Below the pieces are notes generated by a model. That model was given only the letters and a program-made list of their open reading frames with translations. It did not search any database and had not been told where the DNA came from. The position numbers and the translations under genes are program-made. Shown in pieces: positions 16,513 through 23,372 of a DNA stretch of 33,378 nucleotides. The stretch is from Acutalibacteraceae bacterium (lineage in GTDB: Bacteria > Bacillota > Clostridia > Oscillospirales > Acutalibacteraceae): NCBI GenBank assembly GCA_045648125.1, contig JAZRNJ010000275.1, positions 1 to 33,378 on the forward strand, written 5' to 3'. Position 1 is the first letter of the stretch. Every line of letters begins with the position of its first letter.

Positions 16513-16573
16513 AAGAGAATACAGTGGAACGAAAAAAGGTGCTAAAATAGTATTATGGACAATTAAGAAAACA

Positions 16574-16603
16574 CAAACGGCAGAGAAAAATCCCTGCCGT
16601 TTG
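16574..16603. terminator. Bidirectional intrinsic terminator (ends the early operon and the reverse RHH gene)
   Basis: caaacggcag / ctgccgtttg stem. T-rich tails follow on both strands (TTTGTGTTTT on the minus strand). Confidence 0.65.
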
Positions 16604-16611
16604 ATATGTGG

Positions 16612-16794
16612 TTATTCTTCAATGTTAAGATATTGCTTTATAGCATTTCTGAAAAAGTCAGCTTTTTTAATGCCGTCTTCTTTCAGTTTTGCTTCAAAGG
16701 CTTCTACGAATTCTTTCTTGTATTCTACTTTGATTTGTTTATAAGCCTTTGCTTTGTACTTTTTGACAGAGTCAGGATAATAATTATTTGCCAT
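16612..16794 (-). CDS. Ribbon-helix-helix (CopG/Arc-like) small DNA-binding protein
   Basis: 60 aa with SD AAAGGAG. KQIKVEYKKEFVEAFEAKLKEDGIKKADFFRNAIKQYL has a beta-strand/helix/helix pattern typical of RHH antitoxins and regulators. Confidence 0.55.
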   Translation of the reverse strand: MANNYYPDSVKKYKAKAYKQIKVEYKKEFVEAFEAKLKEDGIKKADFFRNAIKQYLNIEE

Positions 16795-16940
16795 TGTTTT
16801 TCTCCTTTGCGAAAGATACTAAATCGTTGATTTGAAGAACAAGCAGTATTGCAAGTGTGCAAACATAGAAAATTTTTAAAAACTTCTTCACTTTTTGAAA
16901 ATGGTGTGATATAATAACATTGTGATAAGTACCCTACTCA

Positions 16941-16963
16941 GGGAGGTTGTCAGCCTCCCTTTT
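16941..16963 (+). terminator. Plus-strand hairpin plus T4, 11 nt beyond the stop of the reverse-strand peptide gene
   Basis: gggagg-ttgtcag-cctccc-tttt. On the minus strand no T-run follows, so it looks plus-strand specific. Confidence 0.5.
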
Positions 16964-16973
16964 CGGTTGGATT

Positions 16974-17063
16974 TTACTTATCCTCTGCGTTCTCGGATAA
17001 TACTTTTACGATTTGCAGTACCGTGAGTATTATACCGAGAATTTTTGTTATTAACTCAACCAT
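16974..17063 (-). CDS. 29-aa hydrophobic peptide (Fst/holin-like type I toxin candidate)
   Basis: Below the ORF-track cutoff. Minus strand: AAAGGAGGTGA, 5 nt, ATG (17063-17061), encoding MVELITKILGIILTVLQIVKVLSENAEDK, with TAA at 16976-16974. One TM helix with a charged tail. Confidence 0.55.
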   Translation of the reverse strand: MVELITKILGIILTVLQIVKVLSENAEDK

Positions 17064-17089
17064 GTTGTTCACCTCCTTTCACTGTCATT

Positions 17090-17118
17090 ATTATATCATA
17101 TTAGTACGAATATGTCAA
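17090..17118 (-). promoter_or_regulatory. Perfect consensus sigma-A promoter driving the hydrophobic peptide
   Basis: Minus strand: TTGACA (17118-17113), exactly 17 nt, TGaTATAAT (hexamer 17095-17090). Confidence 0.7.
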
Positions 17119-17168
17119 TGCTTTTTTGCAAATTTTTTGAAAAAATATAAATATTTTTAAGTTTTTTT

Positions 17169-17191
17169 GCACCCTTTATGGGTGCTTTTTT
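17169..17191 (+). terminator. Plus-strand intrinsic terminator just upstream of the HNH/packaging operon
   Basis: gcaccc-tttat-gggtgc followed by T6. On the minus strand the hairpin is followed by A-runs, so it is plus-strand specific. Confidence 0.6.
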
Positions 17192-17224
17192 GTTGCCTTT
17201 TTTACTTCAAAGGAGTGTAATTTT

Positions 17225-17694: not shown

Positions 17695-18225
17695 ATGGGT
17701 AAAAGAGGACCTAAACCCGGTAGTGGTGGCCGACCACCGAAGGCAATATCAGAGAAAATTATTGAAGGAAACCCGGGAAAAAGAGAGTTAAATGTAGTTG
17801 CTTTCCCTACATCTGAGCAGTCAACAATGCCTAAACCGAGAAAATATTTATCGGAAAAACAGCTTTTTTCAAACCTGAAACTGGATGCAAAGCAGATTTA
17901 TACAGAAACTTGGGAGTGGTTAAAAGAACGTGGTTGTGAACAGCTTGTTTCAAAGACGGTAATAGAGAGATATGCCATTGCTGCAGCAAGAGCAATTCAG
18001 TGTGAACAGTGTATTTCTTCTGAAGGTTTCTTAGCCGAACATCCTACGACTCATGCGGATATTGCTTCTCCTTACGTTACAATTTCAGAAAAATATACGA
18101 AGCAGGCAAATAATATGTGGGGTATGATTTATCAAATAGTTAAAGAAAATTGTTTATCTCCTTTGAATGGTAACGGTTCAAACGAGGACCCAATGGAAAG
18201 TTTACTTAAGAGAAAAGGTGGATAA
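17695..18225 (+). CDS. terS: Terminase small subunit, P27 family
   Basis: MGKRGPKPGSGGRPPKAISEKIIEGNPGKRELN is the characteristic P27-family N-terminus. SD AAAGGAG. Confidence 0.85.
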   Translation: MGKRGPKPGSGGRPPKAISEKIIEGNPGKRELNVVAFPTSEQSTMPKPRKYLSEKQLFSNLKLDAKQIYTETWEWLKERGCEQLVSKTVIERYAIAAARAIQCEQCISSEGFLAEHPTTHADIASPYVTISEKYTKQANNMWGMIYQIVKENCLSPLNGNGSNEDPMESLLKRKGG

Positions 18226-18226
18226 A

Positions 18227-20356
18227 GTGAGGAAAATAAAAATTGATTTTACAAGTTTGAATTGTTTCGATAGTATTTTTGTAGGTTATACCGGAGAACA
18301 CAATGCAACAGAGCTTTTGCTTGTTGTGCCTGAAGAAATGATAAACAAATCTGATTATCAGATAGTTGTTATTCAATCTGGGGCGACTATATTCAAATCA
18401 GATGAAGTAAGAGATGATAACAATAAATCTTATTACAGAAGCGGTAATACAATACACATGAAGCTTGACAAAATGTTTACTCAATTCACAAGGCTTTCTA
18501 TTCAAGTGGAGTTTTTTAAAAGTAATGATTCAGGTGAGGTTGTTCTTATCGCAAAGACTCCTGTGGTACCAAATGTTTTTTTGAAACCATCACCGAACAG
18601 TAATGTTCAAATAGATTTTGAAGGCAATGAAATTGCAACAGTAACAACAAACAAGATTGCAGACGGTGCGGTTACAACTCCAAAGATTGCAGACGAAGCA
18701 GTTACAACAGAAAAGATTGCAGATGAAGCAATTACTCCTGAAAAACTCGACAGAGAATATTTAACCGAACACCAGAGTTTGGAAGGTTATGCTACCGAAG
18801 AATATGTCAATGAGGCAATAGATGACATCAAGTTAAAAGAAGGTTCTGTTACAACAGAAAAGCTCGACAACAATGCAGTAACTGAAGACAAAATTCTTGA
18901 TGGTTCTGTTACACCTGAAAAACTTGACAGAAAATATTTAACCGAACAAGTTCAGTCAGACCACACCCAGAACGACCCGACAAAGCCCGACTATATCAAG
19001 AACAGACTTGCATATTATTGCAGGAAGTTTGAAGACATTCATGCGTTAGAATACAATCCGCCAAAAGCGATGTCTATGACTGCGGATATAGATGAGCAGC
19101 TGTTTATGTATAAAATAGCAGAATATCCCGAAAACGCAAATCCCACAGAGTTGATTGAAGAAATTATAGAACTGAGAATGGCCGATCAAGGTATGAACAT
19201 TAATGATGTCAACTATCAGGACACGGTTATCCGTAAAACTCTCACAAACGAAAACGGTCACACTGTCGGCGCGGTAATTGTGTGCGGTCCTAAGAGCGGA
19301 CAAGCACCTTATGTTTTAGCAGTAAACGATGATAATATAAATGTTTTTTCTACCATATCCTACGAGCAAAATGGCGAAATTCTCGAAATACCGGTCTCTT
19401 TTTATATTACAGAAAAAGGTATTTACGGTATAGTTTTCGAGTCAGAAACAGATGAGAATGATAAAATAGTCAAATGTAGAGGACTAGATACAATTATATT
19501 TAGGAGTGCTAAAAAGATTGACAAGGAATTACTCCCGCCTATGGTTTGGGATGATATTGAAAATAAACCTTTTGGTGAAGTCGATGAAAAACTTATTGAT
19601 GTTACTTTTGACGGCGTAATTCGCGAAGACTCTATCGTTACAAATAGTATCGAACTTGTTGGTAACGTGTTTACCTACGTTAAAGTAGGCGAATTACCTT
19701 ATACATCGGATAAATACATTTCAAAAATACAATCTATTTTAGTGGACATGGGTGGTTATGCACAAACATTTGTTGTACAGGATTTAGATAAGAAGACTTT
19801 CCCAAATGCCGTGATGTTAAGTCATAATGTAGCGTTTACTCTTGTTATTGCCGTTGATGCTCCAGGAGTAATTAACGTCGCTGAAGGTGTAATAGAAATA
19901 GAATGTCCCGAAGCGGGTCTATATTTGGCAGTTGCAAAATCAGGCGAAACATATATGCACGTTGAAGAAATTATTTTTTCGAGTCAAAAAAGACTTGATG
20001 AAAAGTACATGCCCGAAACATATGTCCAAATGCAAAGTGACATTAATCAATACGCAATTGTTAAACAGAAAGTCGATGATCTAGCGTCAAGCGTTGCTGC
20101 TCTTTGGACGGATAAATCAGATTCTTCAGTCGTTACTGCCGTATCAAGAAGCGTCGATAATCTGTCAACAAGAGTCGATAATCTGTCAACAAGAGTCAAT
20201 AATCTGTCAACAGAAATTAATAGTCTGAAAACAGCTATACCCCAAGATTACATGCCCGATGTACCAACAGAGTCCCGAGAAGGTTATTTCTTGCGCGTTG
20301 TCAACGGAAAGTGGGACGCAGTAAAGATTCCAATAGCGGAGGAGGGCGAATACTAA
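18227..20356 (+). CDS. BppU-like tail fibre / baseplate upper protein homologue with fibre repeats and C-terminal coiled coil
   Basis: GTG 18227 behind AAGGTGG. The N-terminal IKIDFTSLN..FVGYTGEHNATELLLVVPEE resembles BppU_N. It has 10-aa repeats KIADGAVTTP/KIADEAVTTE/KIADEAITPE, related GSVTTEKLD and GSVTPEKLD motifs, and heptads SVDNLSTRVDNLSTRVNNLSTEINSLK. Confidence 0.6.
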   Translation: MRKIKIDFTSLNCFDSIFVGYTGEHNATELLLVVPEEMINKSDYQIVVIQSGATIFKSDEVRDDNNKSYYRSGNTIHMKLDKMFTQFTRLSIQVEFFKSNDSGEVVLIAKTPVVPNVFLKPSPNSNVQIDFEGNEIATVTTNKIADGAVTTPKIADEAVTTEKIADEAITPEKLDREYLTEHQSLEGYATEEYVNEAIDDIKLKEGSVTTEKLDNNAVTEDKILDGSVTPEKLDRKYLTEQVQSDHTQNDPTKPDYIKNRLAYYCRKFEDIHALEYNPPKAMSMTADIDEQLFMYKIAEYPENANPTELIEEIIELRMADQGMNINDVNYQDTVIRKTLTNENGHTVGAVIVCGPKSGQAPYVLAVNDDNINVFSTISYEQNGEILEIPVSFYITEKGIYGIVFESETDENDKIVKCRGLDTIIFRSAKKIDKELLPPMVWDDIENKPFGEVDEKLIDVTFDGVIREDSIVTNSIELVGNVFTYVKVGELPYTSDKYISKIQSILVDMGGYAQTFVVQDLDKKTFPNAVMLSHNVAFTLVIAVDAPGVINVAEGVIEIECPEAGLYLAVAKSGETYMHVEEIIFSSQKRLDEKYMPETYVQMQSDINQYAIVKQKVDDLASSVAALWTDKSDSSVVTAVSRSVDNLSTRVDNLSTRVNNLSTEINSLKTAIPQDYMPDVPTESREGYFLRVVNGKWDAVKIPIAEEGEY

Positions 20357-21348
20357 TGAGCGAAGTTTTAATACAAGAAACAACTCTTACAGAAATTGGT
20401 GATGCTATTAGAGAAACCCATAAAATAGAAGGTGCTATATCACCGTTGCAAATGCCGTCTAAGATCAGAGAATCGATTCTCGGTTATTTAGATACCTCGA
20501 TTATAATCGACTGGTGCGCTTGGTTCCAACATGGTCGAAATGTTAATACAGCTGATTATATAAATACAAGTAATGGCATGGTGTTCGATAACATGTTTGA
20601 CGGTTTTGTTTTTCCTGGAGTGAACGAGTATAGCGATGAAGATCTTATGAACATCCTTAGCAGACTCGATTTACGCAAAGGTGTATCCTTTAACCATTTT
20701 TTAGCAAATAATAAGGGCGCTTTTTCGGGAGCTAACACTAAAACTCTTATGACGATAAATGGTTATACGTTCAACTCGTGTTTCGAACAATGTAATGAAA
20801 TGCGTTTTGCGCCTGAGATAATGACTGATAGAGGTGAATTTTTTAGCCGCATGTTTTATGGTTGTGAGTTGCTTATTGGTATCGGGCTTACTAATACAAT
20901 AGACGTTTCGAATGTTAAACCAGAAAATTCAGATAACGCGTTATATTACATGTTTGCAGATTGCCGTAGTCTACAGAGATTAACACTTAAAACAAATAAT
21001 TTGAACAGTGATGCTTTGCAACGAACTTTCTACAATATGACAAGTCTTAAGAATTTGTCTATTAACGGTAAAATAATAGTGAACTCTAATAGTAACGTCG
21101 GGTTAAACGTTGCATATAGTTCTAACCTAACAGTAGAAAGTCTTATTAATTTGTTAGAATCTTTGGAAAACCCAGAGAAAGAAACCACATCATATACAGT
21201 AGCAATTGGAACAACAAATTATAGGAAATTGGAAGCATACATCAGACCTGAAACCATCACCGATGAAAATCCTAACGGTCTCAAATACACAGATGACGAA
21301 GATCATATTTTAAACATAGTTGCAGCTAAAAATATAGTTGTATCATAG
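20356..21348 (+). CDS. DUF285/BspA-type leucine-rich-repeat protein (receptor-binding-like)
   Basis: ATG 20356 (TAATG overlap) behind GGAGGAGGG. Repeated F-x-x-C-x-x-L motifs: MFYGCELLIGIGL, YMFADCRSLQRLTL, TFYNMTSLKNLSI. Confidence 0.55.
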   Translation: MSEVLIQETTLTEIGDAIRETHKIEGAISPLQMPSKIRESILGYLDTSIIIDWCAWFQHGRNVNTADYINTSNGMVFDNMFDGFVFPGVNEYSDEDLMNILSRLDLRKGVSFNHFLANNKGAFSGANTKTLMTINGYTFNSCFEQCNEMRFAPEIMTDRGEFFSRMFYGCELLIGIGLTNTIDVSNVKPENSDNALYYMFADCRSLQRLTLKTNNLNSDALQRTFYNMTSLKNLSINGKIIVNSNSNVGLNVAYSSNLTVESLINLLESLENPEKETTSYTVAIGTTNYRKLEAYIRPETITDENPNGLKYTDDEDHILNIVAAKNIVVS

Positions 21349-21360
21349 GGAGGGTTAATA

Positions 21361-21660
21361 ATGAGTATAAACAATAACTTAGTTGAAAACATCCTGCCTA
21401 ATCTCAATGCTATAAAACGTGTTATAAACGGCGTTTTTTATTTTTGGGAATTATCGGTAACATCAGACGAATATTTATTACACGTTCCGGCTAACGATTA
21501 TAACGGTCTCGATCCGGCTGGTAATGCAGTATACGAACCGTATTATACATACGGTCCTATCAACATACCAACAGAAAACTATGACTGGTCAACAAACCCT
21601 GACGGCTATGAAGCAATTCTCAAATCCACTATTCCGCCTGAAACATTACAAACATTGTGA
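21361..21660 (+). CDS. Hypothetical protein (99 aa)
   Basis: SD GGGAGGG. No family recognised. Confidence 0.6.
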   Translation: MSINNNLVENILPNLNAIKRVINGVFYFWELSVTSDEYLLHVPANDYNGLDPAGNAVYEPYYTYGPINIPTENYDWSTNPDGYEAILKSTIPPETLQTL

Positions 21661-21685: not shown

Positions 21686-21784
21686 TTGTGGAGCGTTGAC
21701 TGTGTGGCAAATGCAGTCATCAAAGGTTGTATAACAATTGATGAATTCAAGGAATTTACGGGATTCAGGTATGCGGAAACTTGA
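21686..21784 (+). CDS. XkdX-like micro-protein (start uncertain: TTG 21686, or ATG 21675 plus a frame change in the A-run)
   Basis: This frame reads (NYDKS)LWSVDCVANAVIKGCITIDEFKEFTGFRYAET, matching the XkdX pattern W..v..aV.kG.IT.eEy.eITG..Y. The well-placed GAGGAG (21660-21665) plus ATG 21675 is in a different frame (+1 nt needed). Confidence 0.45.
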   Translation: MWSVDCVANAVIKGCITIDEFKEFTGFRYAET

Positions 21785-23372
21785 AACATATACACCCACT
21801 CCATATATGGCTGAAACTTCACACTATGATAAGGATGCGGCAGACTATGCTGTGGATTTTATCAGTTGTCTGAAGCACACCAAAGGTAAGTGGCACGGAA
21901 AACCATTTGACCTTATTGATTGGCAGGAAAAAATCATTCGTGATATCTTTGGTACAATCAAAGAAAATGGCTATCGTCAATTCAACACGGCATATGTTGA
22001 AATTCCAAAAAAGCAGGGGAAATCAGAAATTGCAGCAGCTCTTGCGTTGCTTCTGACCTGCGGTGATGGAGAAGAGCGTGCGGAAGTTTATGGTTGTGCA
22101 GCTGACAGAACTCAGGCATCAATCGTGTTTAATGTTGCAGCTGATATGGTCAGGTTATGTCCGGCTCTTAATTCAAGAGTAAAAATAAACGAATCTCAAA
22201 AACGCTTGACATATCTGCCGACGATGAGTGTCTATCAAGTCCTTTCAGCTGATGTTGCTAATAAACATGGTTTTAATGTTTCCGGAGTTGTTTTCGATGA
22301 GCTTCATACTCAACCTAATAGAAAACTCTACGATGTAATGACAAAAGGTTCAGGTGATGCAAGAAATCAGCCGTTATTCTTCCTTATAACTACTGCAGGA
22401 GATAACCAGAACAGTATCTGTTGGGAAGTGCATCAGAAAGCACTTGACATAATTGAGGGCAGAAAGAAAGATGAAACTTTTTACCCGGTTATTTTCGGTG
22501 CTCCTATGGATGCTGACTGGACTGACCCTAAAGTATGGGCAGAAGCAAATCCTTCATTAGGAATAACAGTAGATATAGATAAAGTTCGTGCGGCATGTGA
22601 ATCTGCAAAACAGGACCCTGCAGAAGAAAACAGTTTCAGGCAGTTGAGACTTAATCAATGGGTAAAACAAGCAGTCAGATGGATGCCCATGGAAAAATGG
22701 GACAAATGCAAAACTAAAATTGACTTTGAAAAGTTAAAAGGCAGAGAGTGCTATGCAGGTCTTGATCTTTCATCAACAACAGATATAACAGCTTTTGTTC
22801 TTGTCTTTCCCCCTGAAAATGAAGATGAAAAATATATCATTGTGCCTTTCTTCTGGATTCCTGAGGAAAACATCCAATTAAGGGTACGGCGAGACCATGT
22901 AATGTATGATGTGTGGGAAAAACAAGGCTTTTTGGAAACCACCGAGGGCAATGTATTGCACTATGGTTTCATTGAAAAGTTCATAGAAGAATTAGGCAAG
23001 GTATATAACATAAAAGAAATTGCTTACGACCGATGGGGAGCGCCTCAGATGGCTCAGAATCTCGAAGAACTCGGATTTACCGTTATTCCGTTCGGTCAAG
23101 GTTTCAAAGATATGTCACCGGCATCAAAGGAATTGATGAGATTAACATTAGGTGAACAAATAGCTCACAATGGTCATCCTGTATTACGGTGGATGATGGA
23201 TAATATTTTCATCCGTAAGGACCCTGCAGGAAACATCAAACCTGATAAAGAAAAAAGCACAGAAAAAATTGACGGTGTCATTGCAACAATAATGGCCCTT
23301 GATAGGGCGACAAAGCGTGAAATAAGCTCTTTTGTCTCGGTTTACGAAGACAGAGGGCTTTTATTTATTTAA
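21771..23372 (+). CDS. terL: Terminase large subunit (Terminase_1 family)
   Basis: HTKGKWHGKPFDLIDWQEKIIRDIFG, Walker A-like EIPKKQGKSEIAAALAL, FDELH, and a C-terminal nuclease part. Start chosen at ATG 21771 (MRKLETYTPTPY); 21741 and 21807 are alternatives and none has a good SD. Confidence 0.9.
   Translation: MRKLETYTPTPYMAETSHYDKDAADYAVDFISCLKHTKGKWHGKPFDLIDWQEKIIRDIFGTIKENGYRQFNTAYVEIPKKQGKSEIAAALALLLTCGDGEERAEVYGCAADRTQASIVFNVAADMVRLCPALNSRVKINESQKRLTYLPTMSVYQVLSADVANKHGFNVSGVVFDELHTQPNRKLYDVMTKGSGDARNQPLFFLITTAGDNQNSICWEVHQKALDIIEGRKKDETFYPVIFGAPMDADWTDPKVWAEANPSLGITVDIDKVRAACESAKQDPAEENSFRQLRLNQWVKQAVRWMPMEKWDKCKTKIDFEKLKGRECYAGLDLSSTTDITAFVLVFPPENEDEKYIIVPFFWIPEENIQLRVRRDHVMYDVWEKQGFLETTEGNVLHYGFIEKFIEELGKVYNIKEIAYDRWGAPQMAQNLEELGFTVIPFGQGFKDMSPASKELMRLTLGEQIAHNGHPVLRWMMDNIFIRKDPAGNIKPDKEKSTEKIDGVIATIMALDRATKREISSFVSVYEDRGLLFI

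Follow-up and report, generated by a model that had tools for sequence, protein, structure and literature searches.

A compact cassette of small genes lies on the minus strand of a phage genome carried by an Acutalibacteraceae bacterium (assembly GCA_045648125.1, contig JAZRNJ010000275.1; the whole stretch of 33,378 nucleotides analysed here is referred to as the window). Read in the direction of its own transcription, the cassette is made up of a promoter with a 16-bp palindrome in the spacer, an open reading frame (ORF) for a 29-amino-acid (aa) peptide named pep1, a structured RNA segment, a second small ORF named pep2, a gene for a 60-aa protein of the ribbon-helix-helix (RHH) type, and a terminator, and a second promoter within it faces the first from the plus strand (Table 1). 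A first-pass annotation of the locus had described it as a self-contained reverse-strand moron with a layout resembling the type I toxin-antitoxin (TA) loci of Firmicutes prophages, a description that the comparisons below bear out, and it had passed over the pep2 ORF, the palindrome in the promoter spacer and a covariation-supported mRNA fold that hides the pep1 AUG. Homologues of the peptide and RHH pair, for which it had suggested a search in other prophages, are present in about 40 fetched loci that carry the cassette. These loci come from assemblies of Ruminococcaceae, Oscillospiraceae and other Clostridia and from phage contigs, and they reduce to 14 distinct sequences that form the comparison set; conservation of ORFs was counted over 17 relatives and single-sequence folding covered 16 sequences. 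L numbers (such as L005 or L098) are the labels of fetched related loci.

Chance levels govern how the individual signals can be read. Between 15500 and 18500, seven promoter-like sites are found where 8.4 ± 3.2 are expected, so that this class is not enriched, and five terminator-like sites where 1.5 ± 1.4 are expected, which is an enrichment. Since sites that match 9/12 promoter positions are no commoner here than chance predicts, conservation alone can validate such sites, and it is conservation across the relatives rather than the promoter scan that validates the two promoters of the cassette (one matching 12/12 consensus positions, the other 10/12 with a TG extension). The sense promoter, which the earlier description had correctly given as a perfect match, keeps its −35 element, TG and spacing without change in all 14 distinct sequences, and its −10 element reads TATAAT in 13 of them and TATACT in L017. 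The palindrome ATATT-N6-AATAT occurs once in the window against 0.09 copies expected by chance; its arms are invariant, and the centre varies (AGTACT, CGTACT, ACCGCT, AGTAAC or GGGCCC). Between pep1 and the RHH gene the motif scan found neither a minus-strand terminator, in agreement with the earlier view, nor a separate RHH promoter. The hairpin that closes the operon had been called bidirectional, and it qualifies as a terminator on the minus strand only.

The assignment of the 60-aa protein to the RHH (CopG/Arc/MetJ) superfamily, made at first from its translation, is upheld by profile matches among its relatives. Pfam RHH_1 (PF01402) matches 15 of 22 aligned members, with a best E value of 8.7e-6 and with the window protein itself below threshold, and many of the 82 homologues from gut metagenomes and metagenome-assembled genomes (63-100% identity, most above 70%) carry precomputed matches to PF10723 (RepB-RCR_reg) or PF01402 (RHH_1). 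The AF2 model consists of an extended segment followed by two helices (predicted local distance difference test score 76). The best Foldseek matches are CopG, VapB and MazE6, all of them RHH proteins, at E > 1 and thus not significant, and a profile search of PDB sequences returned marginal matches to CopG and MazE only (E = 0.17-0.59). The ratio of nonsynonymous to synonymous polymorphism (pN/pS) of the gene is 0.29. In L023/L024 an RHH gene that lacks the peptides is flanked on both sides by copies of the promoter and palindrome that drive other ORFs. An RHH fold together with promoter and palindrome copies beside other cargo is best read as a repressor and its operator, and the protein would thus bind ATATT-N6-AATAT at its own promoter. 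Regulators of the CopG/RepB-RCR_reg type (PF01402, PF10723) are likewise about 60 aa or less in length, share the strand followed by two helices, and have an operator palindrome that overlaps the promoter, as the candidate operator does here; unlike them, the cassette protein has a highly conserved N-terminal extension, NNYYPE(A/S)(V/T)KKYKAKAY, and it is found in a phage moron rather than in plasmid replication control.

Two further observations concern this protein and its relatives. Residues 4-18 (16741-16785) form an invariant N-terminal extension, NYYPE(A/S)(V/T)KKYKAKAY, that resembles TEATKRYLEKN, the N-terminus of the otherwise different regulators of group A and L098 (described below), which also stand behind an ATATT-N6-AATAT promoter; the shared motif may be a DNA-reading element. 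RHH relatives without the peptides are associated with other cargo in L020, L023/L024, L107-L110 and L117-L119. Their partners are a 63-aa ORF, a pair of 66-aa and 153-aa ORFs that each lie behind their own copy of promoter and palindrome, a 258-aa ORF, and a 118-aa protein of the 23S_rRNA_IVP family.

The first peptide, pep1, has 29 codons in 17 of 17 relatives, where it starts with ATG, GTG or TTG behind an invariant Shine-Dalgarno (SD) sequence, and it has been called independently as a 29-aa gene on many of the relatives' contigs. Its pN/pS is 0.51, the Kyte-Doolittle score reaches 2.16 in the best 19-residue window, and with a hydrophobic moment of 0.40 it is amphipathic. The SD and the membrane-type hydrophobic span that had been noted for it are therefore retained, and its supposed likeness to Fst/Ldr holds for general architecture only: pep1 has no relevant Pfam match at E <= 1 and none in PHROGs or NCBIfam, and a HMMER search against 1.84 billion representatives returned its own cluster only. 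An identity with Fst/Ldr, TxpA, BsrG, Hok or another named type I toxin was rejected, as no family profile matched. The second peptide, pep2, is encoded by the most divergent DNA of the module, though its frame is open in 17 of 17 relatives, and stops number 20 and 68 in the other two frames. The peptide always consists of K/R-rich residues followed by about 18 hydrophobic residues and then Q, with a pN/pS of 0.62 and a best Kyte-Doolittle window of 2.09, and it has no family in Pfam, PHROGs or NCBIfam. The ORF shares 11 nt with the start of the RHH gene, and its own start codon falls inside the −35 element of the antisense promoter. Both peptides lie above the usual hydrophobicity threshold for membrane helices, and judged by their sequences they behave as coding regions and look membrane-like.

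Wider searches place the cassette outside described families. Rfam searches at the gathering threshold and at permissive settings gave nothing relevant and no antitoxin RNA; GenBank phages and PLSDB plasmids contained no DNA match to the cassette and, by tblastn, no match for pep1 or the RHH protein. The PADLOC defence-system models matched neither the three cassette proteins nor a neighbouring 177-aa protein, and megablast of the whole phage found only distant matches to gut Firmicutes phages, at about 70% identity over small parts.

Folding of the alignment by RNAalifold and of single sequences leads to the same result, a three-way junction of the sense RNA in which a long-distance helix that takes up the AUG and codons 1-6 of pep1 encloses a hairpin within the pep1 ORF and a rod-shaped stem behind it. 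Within the rod, stem P1 pairs the last pep1 codons and the stop (16975-16984) with 16922-16931, and stem P3 occupies 16940-16959 and is capped by a GNRA loop in most relatives. Minimum-energy folds contain the core pairs in 16 of 16 sequences and the start-codon pairs in 11-12 of 16, and the fold of the window's sense RNA has a z-score of −5.8. Over the whole fold, 86% of alignment cells are paired, as against 36-46% when the partners are slid by one to three columns; 15 pairs have changed on both sides versus 4-6 in the slid controls, and the covariation score is 0.197 versus 0.06-0.08. None of 500 shuffles matched the observed percentage paired, the counts of compensatory changes or the covariation score, and further pair types were no more numerous than in these shuffles. 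The evidence is spread over the helices. The long-distance helix (helix 1) has 90% of its cells paired and compensatory changes at four pairs, among them a covariation of the second pep1 codon (Ile/Val, ATT/GTT) with CATATCAT or CACACCAT. Helices 2 and 3, which form the ORF hairpin, have 90% and 79% of cells paired and six pairs changed on both sides, and here the compensatory changes alter amino acids, codon 12 (I/V) covarying with codon 21 (V/E/T/A). P1 has compensatory changes at three pairs, and 94% of the cells of P3 are paired. The three-way fold of the pep1 mRNA with its AUG in the long-distance helix is thus supported by covariation in the aligned sequences, and the helix would be expected to limit translation of pep1. 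The unpaired bases that flank P3 (16934-16939 and 16961-16965) hardly vary on the sense strand, where they read CCGAAA in front of the stem and (A/G)AGUAGG behind it; together with the GNRA loop they resemble an internal loop of the loop-E/sarcin-ricin type, which would be specific to the strand of the peptide mRNA.

Across the 14 distinct sequences the −10 element and TG of the antisense promoter are invariant, the −35 element reads TTCA(C/T)(T/A), and the 17-bp spacer is free of insertions and deletions. The bases of the −10 and TG stay fixed even when their 5′ partners mutate (columns 62:218 and 66:214), while the columns just outside covary with theirs (GC/AU at 72:208, 60:221 and 55:225), which argues for a second constraint on the −10 element. 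Transcription is predicted to start no more than 1-3 nt from where the rod begins. The cis-antisense RNA predicted from this start, of about 130 nt, has a minimum free energy of −43.1 kcal/mol (z = −5.15) and folds in 14 of 14 distinct relatives into two domains, a 5′ rod that is joined by a short linker to a long hairpin with a U-tract. The ORF hairpin forms in every antisense folding prediction, and with the tract that follows it ((A/G/C)ACTTTTG(C/T)TATTAT in the relatives, with 3-5 consecutive T's) it would act as the terminator of the antisense RNA. Mismatches in the helices are also asymmetric, sense A.C (which is G.U in the antisense strand) outnumbering sense G.U by 23 to 5 in P1 and by 28 to 8 in the ORF hairpin, so that these helices are better formed on the plus strand. 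The promoter and the fold are conserved, and the transcript itself is predicted from them.

Sister cassettes were retrieved from IMG/VR by scanning for the pattern of promoter and operator, a scan that also returned unrelated AT-rich promoters. They share the order of peptide, convergent promoter, second ORF and regulator, and their sequences differ from that of the window cassette. In L091 the first peptide is a membrane peptide of 41 aa whose tail is Lys-rich, the second ORF is a membrane ORF of 58 aa, and the regulator is an RHH protein of 72 aa for which GenBank phages and PLSDB plasmids contain no match; L098 has peptides of 51 and 33 aa, the second of membrane type, and a 74-aa regulator; and group A (L038, L040, L046, L047, L062 and L082) has a 23-aa peptide, an ORF of 72-88 aa and a regulator beginning ...TEATKRYLEKN, whose sole relatives in GenBank phages are hypothetical proteins of Fusobacterium and Streptococcus phages. 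In all three the convergent promoter comes right after the hairpin at the stop codon of the first peptide, with a TG-extended −10 element in two of the three, and SD or AUG is hidden, by pairing of 5′ with 3′ sequences in L091 and L098 and by a local hairpin in L038. The predicted antisense RNA of L098 ends in a clean hairpin with U6. In group A, as in the window family, the segment with the antisense promoter does not change even where its partner, here a local one, drifts. The resemblance to the type I TA loci of Firmicutes prophages that had been proposed for the window thus extends from a conserved convergent promoter to analogues in three unrelated sister families.

In most relatives the cassette comes after the last early gene and before the packaging genes (HNH, terS or terL), on the strand opposite to theirs, and a few copies adjoin a lysis cassette instead. 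Its GC content is 0.31-0.33, compared with 0.36-0.45 in the flanks. It recurs in Oscillospirales phages that have otherwise no relation to one another and that differ in their neighbouring genes, with various types of terS, terL and HNH and various early genes, and with unrelated flanking genes across many phages the cassette behaves as a mobile moron. By these features of gene context, and by a promoter and a terminator of its own, it is a phage moron. A plus-strand terminator separates the cassette from the HNH gene of the window, and several relatives (for example L003, L112, L114 and L120) have another hairpin in the same place, upstream of the sense promoter.

Table 1. Features of the cassette and its borders in the window (positions on the forward strand)
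Feature	Position	Strand	Remarks
Sense promoter TTGACA-17-TATAAT, TG-extended	17118-17090	-	12/12 consensus; predicted start near 17083
16-bp palindrome ATATT-N6-AATAT in promoter spacer	17098-17113		Candidate RHH operator
pep1, 29 aa, MVELITKILGIILTVLQIVKVLSENAEDK	17063-16974	-	ATG at 17063; SD AGGAGGTG at 17070-17077
Long-distance helix, 5′ arm	17046-17065	-	AUG and codons 1-6 of pep1; pairs with 16899-16919
U-rich tract AATTTTTGTTATTA / AATTTTTGTTATT after ORF hairpin	17043-17056	+	Putative 3′ end of antisense RNA
Hairpin within pep1 ORF, CTCGG...CCGAG core	16989-17042		From folding and covariation
Rod-shaped stem after pep1	16922-16984		P1, internal loop GAAA / (A/G)AGUA, P3
Long-distance helix, 3′ arm	16899-16919	-	Overlaps −10 of antisense promoter
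Antisense promoter TTCACT-17-TATAAT, TG-extended	16887-16915	+	10/12; predicted start near 16922, first base of the rod
Predicted cis-antisense RNA, about 130 nt	16922-17056	+	Complementary to pep1 3′ untranslated region and all but the first few codons
pep2, 35 aa, single-pass membrane peptide	16891-16784	-	GTG start, no SD
60-aa RHH protein	16794-16612	-	From ORF scan; candidate autorepressor
Terminator of the operon	16603-16574	-	13-bp stem then TGTTTTCTT
Plus-strand terminator between cassette and HNH gene	17169-17191	+	Hairpin 17169-17185 then T6

Some observations on decay and on the surroundings can be added. L012 (3667-4189) holds a decayed copy with a −35 element of TTGGCA, one damaged palindrome arm, an 8-nt insertion and the pep1 ATG changed to ATA, in which pep2 and the RHH gene are intact; the chromosomal genes rimP/nusA lie about 2 kb away on one side, so that the copy is probably a prophage remnant. 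In the window, the HNH start codon follows the plus-strand terminator after only about 35 nt (17186-17224), and the scan shows no promoter-like site there, so that late transcription must begin upstream or use a promoter that is not of the sigma-70 type; if it begins upstream, it passes at least one terminator and the whole cassette in antisense. On the other side of the cassette, a 32-nt stretch (16525-16556, GTGGAACGAAAAAAGGTGCTAAAATAGTATTA) is 100% identical to intergenic DNA of the Streptococcus pseudopneumoniae phages Javan427, 433, 439 and 440, and lies just downstream of the last early gene both in the window phage and in the Javan phages, next to proteins that are unrelated. It reads GGAAC-N17-TAGTAT and might be a late or extracytoplasmic function (ECF)-like promoter or another conserved phage signal. 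The neighbouring 177-aa protein was considered as a homologue of the Javan427 protein beside the shared stretch and rejected, the two having no similarity. Within the packaging operon, three ORFs without Pfam match (729, 345 and 99 aa; 18167-21660) lie between terS (17695-18225) and terL (21738-23372), the first of them with repeats of the KIADxAVTxEK type; in the close relative L005 this slot is occupied by an ORF of 411 aa and an LRR_5 protein of 696 aa, and the interval between terS and terL looks like a variable cargo slot.

These features point to a small-toxin module of the type I TA-like sort, supplemented by a transcriptional repressor, that travels as a mobile prophage moron, a reading to which a probability of roughly 0.55 is given. 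Here, a consensus sigma-A promoter would give rise to a single minus-strand mRNA that spans both peptide ORFs and the RHH gene, and the RHH protein, bound to the spacer palindrome, would keep this transcription low. The full-length mRNA would be poorly translated, as the closing helix pairs the start of pep1 with sequence about 150 nt downstream. The antisense RNA, fully complementary to the pep1 3′ untranslated region and most of the ORF, would trigger cleavage of the duplex or block translation, an action modelled on SR4, SR6 and RatA. As the promoters point towards each other, with the pep2 start inside the −35 of the antisense one, strong sense transcription would occlude the antisense promoter and the reverse. 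Loss of the RHH protein and the antisense RNA, through loss of the prophage or a shut-off of transcription, would tip the cassette towards pep1, which as an amphipathic helix of the size of TisB may damage the membrane; pep2 is possibly a second weak toxin or a membrane partner.

Several points weigh against this reading. Pep1 is without detectable similarity to known toxins in Pfam, NCBIfam or by HMMER, pep2 has no SD, and the pN/pS of 0.5-0.6 of the peptides is only moderate and is confounded by overlapping RNA constraints. Type I systems do not usually place a toxin ahead of its repressor in a shared operon. The long-distance helix takes in the greater part of the antisense −10 element, whose conservation could partly reflect RNA pairing alone; the wobble asymmetry is partly expected from the A-rich sense strand (a small part of the bias), and related sequences are not independent. 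The stem of the antisense terminator is long and interrupted, is followed by only 3-5 U's, and is not flagged by a simple scan. The search that yielded the sister cassettes fixed promoter and operator, so that the sharing of the operator is by construction and the downstream architecture is the only independent evidence they provide.

The explanations that compete with the TA-like module account for much of the same evidence. The two peptides might be non-toxic membrane proteins, concerned with superinfection exclusion, a block to DNA injection or modulation of a host transporter, in an RHH-regulated moron where antisense RNA and fold only tune the peptide level. Such a role would suit a moron that has its own promoter and terminator in many phages, that encodes two conserved membrane peptides and not one, and that matches no known toxin family, and the same pair of RHH protein and operator regulates unrelated cargo elsewhere. 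A repressor, a sequestered AUG and a full-length complementary antisense RNA are, however, stacked controls of the sort typical for harmful products; the design recurs in sister families with different peptides, and pep1 in size and amphipathicity fits the pore-forming type I toxins, all of which makes harmless cargo rather unlikely. Alternatively, the region may be a cis-regulatory leader in which translation of pep1 remodels the three-way fold and thereby sets the expression of pep2 and the RHH gene, the antisense promoter being a by-product of the pairing sequence and the pep2 start codon. This would explain the strong covariation in the AUG-sequestering helix and the ORF hairpin, and it fits the position of most −10 bases within the helix and the coincidence of the −35 element with the start codon. 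It is hard to reconcile with the conserved amino acids and 29-codon length of pep1, which has synonymous changes in the unpaired loop, with a −10 and TG that remain fixed under mutation of the partner (in group A in a different structural context), with convergent promoters in sister cassettes of unrelated sequence, and with a wobble asymmetry that favours the antisense strand, and a leader is therefore improbable.

The arrangement proposed at first was of two plus-strand antitoxin RNAs, one of about 45 nt that ends at 16963 and one of about 150 nt that starts from a promoter within the peptide gene (TTTACG-17-TATTAT, 17005-17033) and covers the SD and the sense promoter. Both promoter-like sites and both hairpins are indeed present in the window, including a hairpin (16940-16960) followed by TTTTCGG behind the antisense promoter, and L120 matches 11/12 at the internal site. 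The promoter of the shorter RNA is the conserved one, but its product more likely measures about 130 nt: the three or four T's after the first hairpin are weak and vary among relatives, the hairpin is the tip of the longer conserved rod, and the 45-nt RNA was rejected as the main species. For the longer RNA, the site (9/12 without TG) and the terminator upstream of the sense promoter exist; the match falls to 6-9/12 in all relatives other than L120, a quality found at chance frequency, with CACTAT or similar as the −10 element in most, and the site was rejected as a conserved feature. The two-RNA arrangement is in consequence highly improbable.

A broader version of the TA-like module is put forward tentatively, and is doubtful as a whole. 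It would make the cassette part of a widespread, unannotated superfamily found in phages of Oscillospirales, in phages with regulators like those of Fusobacterium phages, and in other low-GC gut phages, with three brakes in each unit of about 550 bp: an RHH or 'EATK(K/R)Y' regulator at the shared ATATT-N6-AATAT, a hok-like fold-back mRNA, and an antisense promoter within the fold-back. With sense transcription, antisense transcription and mRNA folding mechanically coupled in this way, the unit would be a switch that fires on loss of the prophage or when an invading phage shuts off transcription.

Parts of the proposed design are known from other systems. In hok/sok and aapA1/IsoA1, long-distance pairing of the 5′ and 3′ ends leaves the full-length toxin mRNA translationally inert; these systems are Proteobacterial, their antisense RNA targets the 5′ region, and they have no protein regulator. 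The cassette shares with hok and aapA1 the fold-back mRNA, and differs in that the AUG is covered rather than the SD and in having no sequence relation to them. In immI of phage P22, the RHH protein Arc autorepresses the operon and an internal convergent promoter makes the small antisense sar RNA, the sense and antisense promoters of arc-ant-sar interfering with each other. The pairing of an RHH protein with an internal antisense promoter therefore has a precedent there; unlike the cassette, immI carries an antirepressor as cargo, has Arc as the first gene of the operon, and directs sar at the ribosome-binding site (RBS) of ant. In a limited literature search, no type I system turned up whose toxin is described as co-transcribed with an RHH protein, which agrees with the earlier suggestion that pairing of the two is not a described arrangement.

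Judged by analogy, the closest experimentally studied counterpart of the cassette is yonT/SR6/yoyJ of the Bacillus subtilis prophage SPβ, a type I TA system with a polycistronic toxin mRNA, in which an extended −10 promoter that lies between two small ORFs, the second of them weakly translated, gives rise to the antisense RNA SR6 (PMC5848175). The two have in common a prophage location, a toxin or candidate toxin ORF that comes first on a polycistronic mRNA, a second small ORF directly downstream, and extended −10 promoters (PMC5848175). They differ in sequence, which shows no similarity, in the length of the toxin (58 aa there, 29 aa here), and in the position of the antisense RNA: SR6 overlaps the yoyJ RBS (PMC5848175), and in the cassette the pep2 start is overlapped by the antisense promoter only. 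The portions of that source used here note no RHH repressor or promoter operator for yonT/SR6/yoyJ (PMC5848175), and the cassette has in addition the AUG-sequestering helix with its covariation support. Prophages of Clostridioides difficile carry type I TA systems, CD0977.1/RCd11 among them, whose toxins are 30-56 aa long, hydrophobic at the N-terminus and charged, with many Lys, in the tail, and a role in prophage maintenance has been proposed for these systems (PMC6563280, PMC7699646). As predicted for the cassette, they combine a Clostridia prophage, a small toxin of this design and a convergent antisense RNA with long complementarity; unlike the cassette they are two-gene modules, for which the portions of these sources used here reveal no co-transcribed RHH protein or second peptide (PMC6563280, PMC7699646), and HMMER finds no homology between the two.

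The comparative sequence evidence thus reveals an unannotated family of cassettes whose regulatory anatomy is supported by comparison and whose kind is probably type I TA-like. To our knowledge no type I TA system has been described for the phages of Oscillospiraceae and Ruminococcaceae, which are dominant in the human gut. If the coupling is real, an antisense promoter that doubles as the fold-back partner of the start codon would place three constraints (peptide, RNA structure and promoter) on one piece of DNA, and the cassette would show control of a toxin at the protein level and at the RNA level combined. The shared operator would provide a simple DNA pattern by which further cassettes can be found, and the promoters, operator, mRNA fold and antisense RNA of the family are all defined and directly testable.

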